Assembly (NCBI RefSeq): GCF_041248615.1 | Contig: NZ_CP158426.1 | DNA: 64,000 bases | Source: Escherichia coli | GTDB taxonomy: Bacteria > Pseudomonadota > Gammaproteobacteria > Enterobacterales > Enterobacteriaceae | Strand: one strand, 5' to 3' | Shown here: positions 33,001 through 39,000 of the stretch, piece after piece | Position numbering within the stretch: the stretch's first letter is position 1 | Layout: each line of letters starts with the position of its first letter | Made by a program: the position numbers

Positions 33001-36000
33001 ACTTGAAAATTGTATACCATCATACCCCTCTTTCCTTATACAATCAGATATTAGTTGGGACACACTATATCTTCCTTCTAAGGAAGGTGGAGTTGCAGTA
33101 TTAAAAATACCTGCCATCTTTGCATATGGTATCATGGATAATAAACTTTCATCACTCTCAATAAACTCTAAAAAATTAGGATAAGAAAAATCGAATACCT
33201 TTAATGCTTTTGCAACTCTAAATTTACCAATTGAAACAACATCTGTTGGATGAGGTCGAACTTCCGCAATTGCAGTATAACTATCTGTAGCACAATAAAG
33301 GTAAGAAACGCCTGCTCTATTAGCCCTGCCAGCAGTAGCCTTTAGTGGTGGCACGGCTCCTATTTCCTTATCTTTAAATGGAACAAATATTTTCTTTCCT
33401 TCACGGCTAAATCCCCTAAGTGCTGTTTTATAGCCAGCAGTCCCAACTCTGGCTCTATATACCACAGAACTTCCTTCTATTATCTTCGAAAAAATATCAC
33501 CATAACCTTTTATAATACTTCTTAGCTCACCTTCAAAATCATGGTAATTCTTTTCTGAAAGCTGTTTTGACAAAGAATCTAAAAATGGCTGATGTGCATT
33601 TCTGATAGACATATATGGCGTATTATATAGACCATCAGATCCATAGCCTGCATAAATATTTATTCCCTCACTATCAAATGCCATATCCCACAATTCGCTA
33701 TCGAGTTCCCCAAAAGATTCATCATGCTCCTGTATATCCTTGGTGAAAATAAAATCATCTTCCAATAGAAAACTCGGGTAATACTCCCCTCCAAAATGAG
33801 TATTGTAATCGACTTCATCATAATGATATCTCAGAATAGCTTTCAACAAATTACGTACTTCTGAAGAATCAGTATCTAAACAAACAGTATCTGCACAACA
33901 AAAAGCACAAATACCTCGTATATTTTGCGAAAAAATTAGTTTTTTTATATTTGATTCAACAATGTGACTTTCGCAGATATACATCATAATCTCCTTGAAT
34001 TTTACCTTACATGCTCATTATTGCCACTTTAGCTTGCGCGCGCAATCGTATCCCCGCCACGCCTGCCCGCTTTATGTAGCGGTTTTCATGCAGGTGCATG
34101 ATCTACGCAAAATCCCACCAGTTCTGGCGGGCCTTAGCAAAAACGATCCGCAAACGATCATGCGATCTCATGCGGCATAGTCATGCACTTACGGGGGAAC
34201 TGAAATCCAGTAACCGAATGATCGCTTGAAAAACGAAACATACGTACTTACAAAGCACAAAGCCTGCTTTGAGCGAAGCGGACATTAATAATGTTGCTGA
34301 CCATCCCTAGTACTTCTCATAATATATCCGTATGTTAATCAACAAAATATTAATTTGTCCCATCACTAAAGAATTTGATTGCGTCAGTTAGTACATAGTC
34401 AATGAAAAATTTTACGTGAAAGACCTGAAAAACGCTATTTTCTGAGTTTTTAATGAAATCTACAGCTATATCTTTTAGGTTGATCAACCAGTTATATTCT
34501 TCAATCAGTCTAGTTCTGGCATCCGCATCAGAATAACGACTCCGTAAGCTAAATGCCAGTTTCCTCATGATAACTGGATCAAGTTTCCTATAGCTTTCAA
34601 TGAAAACATCAGCAGGAACTAAGTGTAAAAAAGGTACATCATGAAGATTTAACTGTCTATTATTAGAATGACTCAATTCAGATAACAACGATAATTTTCC
34701 CCTTTGTAACTCATCTCTGAACTGCAATGCAAATTCCGAAATTGAATCATCAAACCGTTTCTTCCTTTCTATTTTAATATGTTCAATAATGAGCTTAAAG
34801 TCATCACTATCCCTGTCAAGAAAACCTAAACCACGCCATGCCCTTAATTCGTTATAATGTGTTTGCGCATATTCCTTATGTACATCTTCAGCTCTAAGTC
34901 TATTATAATAATTATTTATATTCTGTTTTGTCTCATTTATGAGATCATGAACATCATCTGTTGTTAGACCTTCTTTCGCCATTTCCAGCAAAATACTCGC
35001 TGTCATCAGAAGTTCACCTAAGGAAGTGATCTTACCTGAAAACAGGTTATCCTTAGCAATAGCGTACTGCTCATAAAGCATAGTTTCATTTAGTTCTCTA
35101 TAGTTCCACAAATACTCCCATGCTTGGGAATCGCTGCTTCTAAAAAATCGCGTAATATCCAACTGAGCAAGAAGATCACCCGTTACCTTTCCATCACAGA
35201 TTAGTTCTCTCCAAGACGCACCATCCAGTAACTTCTCGGTTAATACAGGAGACGAATATTTCTCGACAATCATGTCATACTTACTTTTGACACGTTCTTT
35301 ACCCAAAAACATACCATAATTAACATTGCCGATTGAATTGAAATCCTCGTAACTAAGATTCCCTCCCCGGTACTCCATCGAAAAAATTAACAATTGATGA
35401 AAAAACACCCTTATAAATTCATCGTTACTTACATATTTATCTCCCAAAAGGGAAATAATTCGTTGTACATCGAGAAAGAACTGCCTCAAGTGTCTTAGAT
35501 TATTATAATTCGCTGACACATAGAGGTCCTCTATTGTCTGCATATCTTCTTTAAATATATTAGCAACATGCAAACTACTAATTACGTTCAAAAAAATCTT
35601 ACAAGCACTATGTAAATCTGACGTTACTTCAAATGTTTTACCTACTAGCTTTTCTTTTGTTCTCATGTATTCATTGCGAGATTTCTCATCATCATTATTT
35701 ATTCGCTTTTCTCTATTGATTATTTCATCTTCATTGGCAACCAAGATCGCTTTGTATCCGTTTACCTCTACAAAGTGATTTATATATCCAAATAAGATTG
35801 GTAAATCTACACCAGCTCTCTCGACATCATCAAAGACCAGCACAAAACCATCTGGTTTTCTAGTAAAGTCGCTAAGATTAATGGTGGGAACATTGCTATT
35901 GACATCTACGTCAGATTTATTATCGCCATTAAGATCGATCTTGAAAGTAGCCTTAAGCGTATTTTTTAGTACATTTGCACCAAAGATAAGGGCTTTGTTT

Positions 36001-39000
36001 GATAGGACAGGATGCAGTTGACGATAGAACTCATCTTCAATCTGCTCAATAGAGTTGACGCCATACAAGCTCACTTTTAGAAATTTGAACTCTGAATGTT
36101 TCTGCCTATATTCTTCAAGAACTCGTTCAATGAACCAAGTTTTACCTGATCCCCAAGCACCTTTAAGCATAATGGCGTATTGAGGTTCAGTTTTAAGGCT
36201 AAGGTAATATTCTAGATAGTCTTTGATGTACGTATTGTGCATTTTTAGTCCATTTTGATAAAATACATAAACATAGATGGTAAGTAGAGCCAAAGGCCAA
36301 CTATGGAAAACTCAATCGGTAGTGTACATTGTAAGGTTATTATTGGTAAATATTATAGGAATACCCATAATCTAACAAAATTCAGATTATCCGTTGCAAA
36401 TTAGTCTGCCATTCGCTAATTGACGAAAGATAGCACAAGAAACGTTCGCTTCTGGCACAAAGCGGACGATCACTTATAAAAATGACCGCCCACCTTACGC
36501 CTTATTTCACTCGTTGCCCAAACTAGCCCCCATTAGAATGAATCCTCCTAGGGGCAACGTTTCTTAATGCAGCCAGCTGTCATCTTCCCACACTTTCTGC
36601 ATAATTTTCATTACTTGTTTTCTTTCTTCGTCCAGTTGCAGTCCGGTTAGTTCCACACCGTTAGAGCTACCTTTGCGGATACGAATTACCGTTTTGGAAT
36701 ACAGGGGGCGCAGATTGCGGTAAAGCTCGGATTCAAGGGCGTCCAGGGTAGACTGGCTAATCTTCTGCTCTTTATCGATCATTATTTCAATGCGCATAAA
36801 AGTCACCTCAGCTGATGACATCCATTGAGCGGTTGTATTCGTGGCTTCTGATTTTTGCCATGAGTTCATCAGTCAATTCAGAAACCCACTGCAGAGCCAG
36901 CCCCTTCTCTTCATCACTACACTCACTAGCCGCTACAAGCTTAAGAAAAAAATCAATGCGCTGGAGCTTCAAAGACTCCAAAAAATAGTCCTGCATCTTT
37001 CCTCCTATGACACCACACGCAATTCTGTATGTATAACCACTGTTTATATTTACAGTATATAATAATCCTACTGATGTAAAACGTTTTTTTACGCTTATCA
37101 GCCTGATATGCCTGGTATTATTAAGAGCACGAATTGTTAACCCGCGTAATTAATACAGGTTCCGCCACTGATCATCTTCCTGCAAACGTTGGTTCCGATA
37201 GAAGATACGCAGGCCTGCTCCTGACGGAATACTGCCGCCACGAAGGAGTAAATAGACCTCTTTCTCGCTGCCATCAAATCCTCTGGACTTCAGTTCATAG
37301 ACAAGCTGCTGTCGCTGATGGTCTGTAATTCGCTGTTTGTAGTCTTTACGCCGTTTCGGTTTCACCAGGCGTAACCTTGCAGCCAGTTCCCGGCGCTCTT
37401 TTTTGCTCATACTGTGCAGGTATTCGTGCAACTCCTTGTCATCCATGCGGGTGATATCCGTTCTGGTATCTCCATCAGCTGATTTGTCTTTCCCTTGTTG
37501 GTACAAATTTTCAGCAAGGGGACAGTTATTGCCACGAGTCCAAGGGGCGCAAGCGCCCTGGTCGGCTGCCGCCTCCTGAACGTCAACGGCCTTACGAACC
37601 ATTTTCCACTTCACTGCATGAGTGCAGATCTTGCCCTCTGCAATGGGTGACCAGATGCCATAAATACGAATGCCGTGATCGCCATAGGCGGTCGGCTCTT
37701 CGTTAATTTCATAAGCAGTTCTGATGAGGTGATATTTGCGGGGAACCAGTACGCCGCCCTGCTTCATGATGTAAGTGGCAAAACAACCAGCATCAGCAGC
37801 AGCCAGGATTGCATCAAGGCGCGGGTTATCCAGTACCGGCGCACCTGCTTTTTTGTCCCCCTGTTGCCTTGCCGCCTGACCAGCCAGCAATCGCAGTTCA
37901 CGGTAAGCCTGACGCCCCGGAATGCCAAAGAAGCGGAATTGCTGAACACGATGCAGAGACGCCCAGGCATTAACGTATTCAGCGTTATCACGCAGGGATT
38001 TACCCGTTTCCTTGCTGATCTCGCCAGCCAGACCACGCCCGTCAATGTTCTTACTGATGTATTTCGCGATGTAGCTTGTTGGCGTACCTTTGCGCGGGTT
38101 TATCAGCTCAGACTTAAAGCGTGGTCCCGTGTTATTCCCCAGCTCCTCGCGGTCTTCACGAATGGCAAACTTACGCAATAAAGCAGTAATGGCGCGGCGA
38201 TCTTTTTTGCGCATAAAACACAACAGGTGCCAGTGAACTGTACCGTCATGATGCGGCTCAGCCACCCGCACGCCATACCACCGCAATCCGGCTTTGTGCA
38301 TCGCCTTACGAAATGCAGCAAACATGCCGACCAGATAATCACTGCTTTGTTTTACCGTCGCATTTGTCCAGGTTGGGTTGGGCCTGCCGTTATTTAGCGT
38401 GGAATGGAAACGTGACGGACAGGTGATGGTGTAGAAAACGGCGCAGTCACCGCGCATTTCCGCGATAAGCTCCAGACCTTTAACACAGGCCATCATCTCA
38501 TTGCGGCGATGCGCAGGGTTGCTGCTGCTGGCGTTTACCACATCCTCCATGTCCAGCGTGTCGCCGTCTTCGTTCACCAGTTCATGAGAACGGAAAAACT
38601 CCAGCGACTTACGGCGCTGCTCACGTTTATGCATCACGGCTTCATAGCTGACATAGGGGGATGCTTTTTTGCTAACCAGGCAGACAGCGCGCAACTGCTC
38701 TTCCCGCCATTCGCAACGCATCTTCCATAATTTCCGATACCACCAGTCGGCGCACAACATACGCGCCAGCGAACCCGGAATGAGTTCATAGGGCACGGGT
38801 TTACGGCGGTTTCTTTTCCGGCGGAGTTGCTCAAACGCAGGTGGGATGACATCCAGACGCAGGGTTTCCGCCGCCACCCTTTCCCATGTCTTGCGGATTT
38901 CTTCTGGCTTAACGTCATCGGTGGCATACAAATCGCCACAAGCTGCATCAAGGCACATGCTCATATGCGCAGCAACAAGGGTGGACAGGCGTTTCACCTG

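Follow-up and report, generated by a model that had tools for sequence, protein, structure and literature searches.

We identified a KAP-family P-loop NTPase gene carried as cargo by a 186/P2-like prophage of Escherichia coli, and we consider its product probably to be an anti-phage factor. The gene lies in a 64,000-nucleotide stretch of contig NZ_CP158426.1 (RefSeq assembly GCF_041248615.1), hereafter termed the window, within a prophage integrated by rcdA/ybjJ. In our preferred reading, the lysogen would make a soluble, single-protein, ATP-dependent anti-phage factor of the PDC-S49 family, encoded by a ~2.2-kb moron in a hotspot next to the cohesive-end site (cos). We favor this reading because of the accessory status of the gene, the slot that it occupies, its mobility, the purifying selection acting on it, its candidacy in the PADLOC defense catalogue, and the precedents set by other KAP proteins. 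The coordinates of all features are collected in Table 1.

A minus-strand open reading frame (ORF) spans window positions 34350..36293 and encodes 647 amino acids when a TTG extension is included. This frame had been proposed in the initial annotation and was confirmed by ORF calling, but its start had to be revised. The true start is the ATG at position 36242 and not the TTG at 36293, because it is there that RefSeq annotates it, that the PADLOC and PHROG profiles begin to match, and that all homologues start. In the copies found in Serratia, Edwardsiella, and Pantoea, a 2-nt indel disrupts the 17-codon TTG extension. The gene is AT-rich, as originally described, with a G+C content of 35.1%; the window averages 50.1%, and the phage genes on either side have 53-55%. 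The region including it has a 100% identical counterpart in the chromosome of E. coli NRZ14408 (NZ_LT599825.1).

The hallmark motifs on which the assignment to the KAP family was first based are intact in the translated protein. Both the Walker A motif, GxxGxGK[ST], and the Walker B motif, hhhhDDx[DE]R, can be read, and a profile search returned Pfam KAP_NTPase (PF07693) with an i-Evalue of 1.3e-19 over model positions 4-290 of 293. The same domain is present in all close homologues. Full-length homologues measure ~620-650 amino acids and share 26-33% identity. In an alignment of 48 of them, Gly-28, Trp-30, Gly-31, Gly-33, and Lys-34 of Walker A and Phe-137, Asp-138, Asp-139, Glu-141, and Arg-142 of Walker B are invariant. 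Also kept among homologues are a sensor-1-like asparagine (Asn-170), an arginine of the lid (Arg-250), and, in the C-terminal half, Glu-290, Trp-375, Phe-547, Arg-569, Tyr-570, and Glu-582.

Judged by profile comparison, the window protein is a member of the PADLOC candidate family PDC-S49. The best match (3e-156) aligns residues 19-640 of the 647-amino acid ORF with positions 5-614 of the 624-position profile; the three PDC-S49 models scored 3e-156, 1.3e-149, and 3.6e-88, and the allele of NC101 reached 1.5e-160. The full-length profile match, the single-gene organization, and the KAP NTPase domain are all shared with the family, and nothing sets the window gene apart from it. The protein also matched phrog_4740 (9.4e-63), a PHROG family that carries no function label. 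The PDC entries are 145 predicted “phage defence candidates” drawn from genes found inside BREX, DISARM, and type I restriction-modification (RM) loci (Payne et al., bioRxiv 10.1101/2024.01.29.577857). With the family already catalogued in this way, the initial emphasis on the few characterized functions of KAP NTPases overstated the novelty of the gene. Our literature search found no paper naming PDC-S49, the RefSeq accessions, or phrog_4740.

A profile search against the sequences of the Protein Data Bank (PDB) gave no relative of the protein (best E value, 0.36). The AlphaFold 2 model has a mean predicted local distance difference test score (pLDDT) of 83.7 and consists of an AAA+-like core with a lid, followed by an all-helical half. 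On structure comparison, the ATPase fold is shared with ORC/Cdc6, TnsC, MuB, RdrA, and NLR-like ATPases, and the best matches of the predicted structure are replication initiators and transposition ATPases. The scores were 12.5 for TnsC, 11.4 for BrxC, 11.3 and 10.7 for RdrA of RADAR, 10.9 for MuB, and 10.5-11.1 for plant and animal NLRs and Avs3. Foldseek agreed with these ATPase fold matches and placed human ORC at the top. Residues 286-630, which supply the helical region that follows the NTPase domain in KAP proteins, found their best fold matches among HEAT/ARM repeats. Neither a STAND-type profile nor a tripartite effector-NTPase-repeat-sensor architecture was found (Pfam nSTAND6, 0.024; NB-ARC, 0.25). 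Transmembrane helices in or near the P-loop domain are typical of the KAP family, if not universal. Membrane prediction found no transmembrane segment in the window protein (19-residue Kyte-Doolittle maximum, 1.3 overall).

Between the two Walker motifs, the protein carries a family-specific insert that is the best-conserved stretch besides the motifs themselves. It is exactly 49 residues long, with zero indels, in 48 of the 48 aligned homologues, in spite of their low overall identity, and His-77, Pro-78, Leu-80, Lys-83, Asp-103, and Pro-119 are invariant. Its first half is basic (residues 77-102 carry a net charge of +3 to +7, against about −16 for the whole protein), and residues 80-122 have a pLDDT of <50 in the AlphaFold model. 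The insert contains no membrane helix (19-residue Kyte-Doolittle maximum, 0.79), and its helical hydrophobic moment is not exceptional, ranking at the 81st percentile for the protein. Other KAP proteins bear a membrane hairpin or transmembrane helices at this position. Going by the known AAA+ topology, the position would also correspond to that of the DNA-contacting insert of initiator-clade AAA+ proteins (ORC/Cdc6, DnaA, MuB, and TnsC).

The gene is bounded on one side by cos. This site matches cosL of P2, as annotated in NC_001895, at 14 of 19 bases, and its flanks resemble the P2 junction too; 155 bp around it are common to ~100 P2-family phage records, and homology among KAP-carrying prophages begins at cos. 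On the other side, upstream of the gene and on the same strand, lies an SOS-type operon whose two products match phrog_698 and phrog_189 (DinI). The NCBIfam DinI score of the second product, 1.9e-9, is below the cut-off of that model, and we call the protein DinI-like. The perfect LexA box CTGTTTATATTTACAG at 37040-37055, ahead of both genes of the operon, is the sole perfect CTGT-N8-ACAG in the window. The annotation of P2 places tin and old between A/orf91 and cosR. With cos mapped, the LexA box located, and the P2 annotation at hand, the placement given to the gene at the outset, between cos and an SOS-controlled tum-like locus in the position of old/tin, is borne out. By read-through from the LexA-box operon, SOS induction could raise KAP expression as well.

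The gene is accessory. We found it in 45 of 5,426 complete E. coli genomes, always as a single chromosomal copy. The backbone formed by the 62-amino acid protein and DinI-like genes is present in 1,124 of the same genomes, at 1,160 sites, so that KAP occupies 45 of ~1,160 backbone sites (~4%) and ~96% of related prophages do without it. This comparison across related prophages agrees with the earlier view of the gene as variable cargo and not a core phage gene. In related prophages, the slot between cos and the DinI-like gene is instead filled by a PifA-like KAP, a DUF2971 protein, or hypothetical proteins, and PIN, DUF262, and HNH-type genes are found in the adjacent slot between the portal gene and cos. 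Counting both slots, we saw six alternative occupants, in line with the variable content of the P2 hotspot. The published P2 defense hotspot comprises the variable genes between the conserved A/tum and Q (Rousset et al. 2022, PMC9122126), and the KAP slot belongs to it. In E. coli K56-43-un (NZ_CP053079.1; locus L004, 6676-8796), the slot between cos and the DinI-like gene contains a PifA-like KAP of 706 amino acids (PADLOC PifA, 2e-64), which adjoins the same RES-domain gene as is present in the window. Two unrelated KAP families have therefore been recruited to one prophage slot.

More widely, relatives of the protein occur in 410 of 100,044 GTDB species representatives, among Proteobacteria, Bacteroidota, Cyanobacteria, Chlorobi, the candidate phyla radiation (CPR), and others. 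They also occur in 66 IMG/VR viral contigs, of which 9 have the same P2-like arrangement. Searching deposited phage genomes by tblastn gave only three weak partial matches. For 89 diverse KAP loci, we clustered every ORF lying up to 4 kb away and found no neighbor family in more than 3 of the 89, in agreement with the initial description of a standalone gene. Those neighbors that recurred encoded integrases or a type I RM methylase, or reflected plain synteny, and the type I RM methylase and integrase genes each stood beside three homologues. An HNH_2 (PF13391) protein of ~295 amino acids is encoded directly beside KAP homologues of Serratia liquefaciens (L006, 6794-7693) and Lysobacter sp. 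LF1 (L011, 10264-11148). We considered it as a partner and rejected it, because the clustering placed no such family in 3 or more of the 89 loci.

The gene has moved horizontally together with non-coding sequence on both sides, and the mobile unit appears from alignments to measure ~2.2 kb, roughly 34240-36424. On the 5′ side, homology begins near AATTAACGAATGG, and ~180 nt upstream of the ORF are shared, with 65-72% identity to the Serratia, Edwardsiella, and Pantoea copies and 95-98% among the E. coli copies. On the 3′ side, ~110 nt past the KAP stop codon align in all copies at 74-84% identity, and homology stops thereafter. This segment contains an imperfect GTCCGC/GCAGGC hairpin at 34262-34283 with a T-rich run behind it; the hairpin is perfect in NC101 and was not among the calls of our terminator scan. 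The gene, still bordered by its 5′ and 3′ non-coding segments, also occurs in Serratia liquefaciens and Edwardsiella tarda, there in lambdoid prophages whose sequence farther out is unrelated. Because synonymous divergence between the KAP copies is only 0.23-0.53 and the ratio of nonsynonymous to synonymous divergence (dN/dS) is low, 0.2-0.3 in both halves of the protein, the comparison points to recent horizontal spread under purifying selection. We rejected diversifying selection on the putative sensor half: its dN is 1.4-2.6 times that of the ATPase core, yet its dN/dS is 0.22-0.42. The copy in Pantoea rodasii LMG 26273 (L015, 6001-7896), the best segment of which is 80% identical, shows many stops in a single frame and is probably a frameshifted pseudogene.

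The hexamer TATAAT, put forward initially as a possible −10 element, is present on the coding strand at 36352-36357. Its proposed role fared less well, as it was not called by our promoter scan and is not conserved outside E. coli, reading ACTAAA in the Serratia, Edwardsiella, and Pantoea copies. The sequence TAnAAT at 36328-36333, 24 nt downstream of TATAAT, is invariant in six of the six aligned copies. A structured RNA in the 5′ region was considered and rejected, the RNAalifold consensus being weak (−7.9 kcal/mol, with a covariation term of −1.0). The region diverges from the Serratia and Edwardsiella copies by a Jukes-Cantor (JC) distance of 0.36-0.48, near the synonymous value of 0.49-0.53, and because its conservation is so close to synonymous divergence we make no claim for RNA structure.

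The nearest tested relative of the window protein that sequence comparison indicates is Reve, and it is a distant one. Reve is a single-gene KAP from P4-satellite hotspots, for which its authors likewise found human ORC as the top Foldseek match; with the Reve plasmid pFD425, plaque counts of Drexlerviridae phages in E. coli dropped by ~40-fold to >10^5-fold (bioRxiv 10.64898/2026.02.27.708500). Translated from the authors' sequence file, Reve has 586 amino acids with the motifs GEWGVGKT and FIIDDLER. Its sole PADLOC hit is PDC-S49 (2.5e-11, residues 22-277). The family profile scored 29.7 bits against Reve, nearly all of them from the Walker A region, and we found neither full-length homology nor a convincing alignment of the C-terminal halves. 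Reve resembles the window protein in consisting of one soluble protein, in its size, in its N-terminal KAP NTPase and helical C-terminal part, and in being encoded in a hotspot of the P2/P4 system; it differs in belonging to another, distant family and to a different mobile element.

PifA, the founder of the KAP family, is encoded by the F plasmid and excludes T7; its triggers are the T7 proteins gp1.2 and gp10, and its phenotype is membrane leakage. It resembles the window protein in being a KAP NTPase without membrane helices carried by a mobile element, where it serves as an anti-phage factor made of one protein, and it has no significant sequence relation to it past the P-loop. Membrane depolarization and nucleotide leakage on T7 infection have been reported for PifA, and Tmn, a KAP-type or related anti-phage ATPase of the YobI family, causes plasmolysis (PMC13001434). 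EF_KAP and three metagenomic KAPs were assayed in Enterococcus; defense by EF_KAP needs Walker B, and its protection was equal at low and high multiplicity, from which its authors infer a non-abortive mode.

Old and Tin of P2, non-essential lysogenic-conversion products that exclude other phages, are encoded in the same slot as the window protein, between cos and the replication region. The proteins themselves are unrelated, however, and old/tin are transcribed from cos toward A, whereas KAP is transcribed toward cos. The PADLOC search gave hits to neither an Old nor a Tin model. STAND/Avs proteins possess an N-terminal effector domain, whereas the window protein begins directly with the NTPase, its Walker A starting at residue 28. 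RdrA of RADAR has a partner enzyme, RdrB, and the window protein has none.

In the mechanism that we propose, the lysogen would make the KAP protein as a guard against superinfecting phages. Its C-terminal helical solenoid would recognize a phage-made protein, upon which the ORC/Cdc6-like ATPase module would switch into an ATP-dependent oligomer that halts phage development. The output could be direct interference of the basic insert with phage DNA replication or packaging or, alternatively, a PifA-like collapse of the membrane or energy state. This output step is the weakest link of the proposal; we slightly favor the former option, and the data do not discriminate between the two. Several observations weigh against an anti-phage role. 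Several KAP homologues stand alone among housekeeping genes, outside defense islands. The fold fits ATPases of DNA replication and transposition equally well, and the likeness to Reve is confined to the ATPase module (BLASTP, 33% identity over 49 residues, 24-72). We found no convincing promoter: the scan gave no sigma-70-type site upstream of the gene on the coding strand, and the proposal has to assume that the lysogen expresses it. The protein has no recognizable effector domain, membrane segment, or partner gene, which leaves its means of stopping a phage to guesswork. The anti-phage part of the initial proposal nonetheless stands circumstantially, on the PDC-S49 match, the hotspot, and the KAP proteins already tested. 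Its suggestion of abortive infection does not, given the lack of an effector domain and membrane segment and the reportedly non-abortive behavior of EF_KAP.

In one alternative, a PifA-like abortive infection, sensing of a phage protein would cause the basic, amphipathic insert to attach to the membrane, and leakage or energy collapse would kill or arrest the cell. The membrane effects of PifA, itself devoid of membrane helices, provide a precedent; the insert takes the place of the membrane hairpin of other KAPs and is basic in its first half within an acidic protein, and a PifA-like KAP occupies the same slot of another prophage. We nevertheless regard this scenario as unlikely, since the window protein gave no match to the PifA profile at the 0.01 limit (the NC101 allele reached only 0.0051 over ~40 residues), BLASTP against the PifA-like KAP returned an E value of 0.79, the hydrophobic moment of the insert does not stand out, and EF_KAP protects equally at low and high multiplicity. 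A bolder idea is that the PDC-S49 proteins are effector-less immune ATPases acting directly on phage DNA: after the solenoid had recognized a phage protein, the basic insert would enable the ATPase to load or polymerize on DNA and block replication or packaging without killing the cell. We hold this to be rather improbable in so specific a form; if true, it would be a defense mechanism so far undescribed for KAP proteins.

Two further explanations depart from a self-contained defense gene. The protein might be an accessory factor of the mobile element, an ORC/MuB/TnsC-like DNA loader for replication, packaging, or integration, or else a lysogenic-conversion factor unrelated to phage. The structural matches to replication initiators and transposition ATPases, the location by cos and downstream of replication gene A on the same strand, the conserved basic insert at what we infer to be a DNA-contacting position, and the lack of an effector domain are all consistent with such functions. 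The gene is dispensable for the phage, however, with ~4% of related prophages carrying it; relatives occur alone in chromosomes among housekeeping genes and in unrelated phage types; PDC-S49 was drawn from members embedded in BREX, DISARM, and RM loci; and the alternatives in the hotspot are of commonly defense-linked kinds (PifA-like KAP and DUF2971 in the slot; PIN, DUF262, and HNH-type genes adjacent). Taken together, a non-defense function seems to us improbable, and its principal form, a role in the element's own DNA transactions, is disfavored because ~96% of related prophages do without KAP and the gene is also found outside phages. Even less can be said for a two-gene system with the neighboring RES-domain gene, in which the ATPase would sense infection and the RES domain would be the toxic effector. 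The two genes are adjacent on the same strand, RES would provide the effector that KAP lacks, and a KAP-type NTPase accompanies RES in four of the five RES-bearing E. coli genomes, the NTPases coming from two unrelated families (PDC-S49 and, in two of the genomes, PifA-like). These four co-occurrences reduce to two lineages, however, and co-occurrence is not conserved: RES accompanies 2 of the 45 E. coli KAP loci, being absent from 43, and stands without any KAP in 4 of 8 contexts (L005, L096, L097, and L098, one genome and three viral contigs). In addition, cos separates the genes, placing them at opposite ends of the packaged DNA, terminator-like hairpins lie between them, and the 89 diverse loci revealed no conserved neighbor of KAP. 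We consider such a system very unlikely and largely refuted by its distribution.

The RES gene is instead cargo independent of KAP, on the opposite side of cos. Its RES domain, of the NAD+-phosphorylase toxin type, is confined to residues 213-347, leaving an N-terminal part of ~210 residues without assignment. Searches of the protein against PADLOC, NCBIfam, and PHROG gave no hit, and we saw no obvious gene for an antitoxin. Wherever the RES gene was found, in 5 of the 5,426 E. coli genomes and in three IMG/VR contigs, it fills the portal-cos slot of a P2-like element, and it is plausibly uncatalogued defense or toxin cargo in its own right.

Elsewhere in the prophage, an ORF of 288 amino acids (23519-24385, plus strand) lies on the opposite strand, with the baseplate V gene and virion-morphogenesis genes on its two sides. 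Neither Pfam nor PADLOC gave a match for it, and its position, which we take to be that of P2 orf30, would be a further cargo slot. The tail-fiber region (17481-18047, 19494-19961, and 20610-20999) contains, besides a gene for a serine invertase, two fragments annotated as pseudogenes, one of an integrase and one of a tail protein, both partial; the tail fibers of the prophage may therefore be defective.

Table 1. Window coordinates of the KAP gene, its parts, and the surrounding prophage features
Feature	Position	Strand	Remarks
Terminase gene P	29986-31752	+	
Portal gene Q	31749-32780	+	
RES-domain gene	32833..33987	-	384 amino acids; portal-cos slot; Pfam RES 4.5e-18
cos (cohesive-end site)	34045-34063	-	GGCGTGGCGGGGATACGAT (minus-strand reading); divides KAP slot from RES slot
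3′ non-coding part of module	34240..34349	-	Hairpin, then T-rich run
KAP-family P-loop NTPase gene	34350..36242	-	630 amino acids from the ATG at 36242; RefSeq WP_032176113.1 “P-loop NTPase fold protein”; PADLOC PDC-S49
C-terminal all-alpha domain	34353..35387	-	Residues 286-630; predicted HEAT/ARM-like solenoid, no enzyme fold
N-terminal NTPase and helical lid module	35388..36242	-	Residues ~1-285; predicted AAA+/ORC-Cdc6-like fold
Walker B	35811..35843	-	VLVFDDVERAG, residues 134-144 (translation)
Family-specific 49-residue insert	35868..36014	-	Residues 77-125; between Walker A and Walker B
Walker A	36138..36161	-	GAWGSGKT, residues 28-35 (translation)
5′ non-coding part of module	36243..36424	-	Aligns with Serratia, Edwardsiella, and Pantoea copies in unrelated flanks
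DinI-like protein gene	36564-36797	-	
SOS-type operon	36564..37055	-	Same strand as KAP, upstream; LexA box, 62-amino acid protein gene, and DinI-like gene
62-amino acid protein gene	36808-36996	-	
Replication gene A	37150-39564	-	dam comes after in window order

With the family already a catalogued defense candidate, the hotspot known, and defense by KAP proteins precedented, the finding is chiefly one more case of established patterns, namely defense-type cargo in P2-type hotspots and the recurrence of KAP ATPases there. A potentially interesting question is how an ATPase with neither effector nor partner would halt a phage, and its mode of action could be instructive because no effector can be recognized in the protein. 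Natural alleles differ by 10-16% in protein sequence. If the gene proves protective, a PADLOC candidate family as widespread as PDC-S49 (~410 of 100,044 species representatives and 66 viral contigs) would be validated, and a soluble, partner-less ATPase would join the few KAP proteins with a known role.

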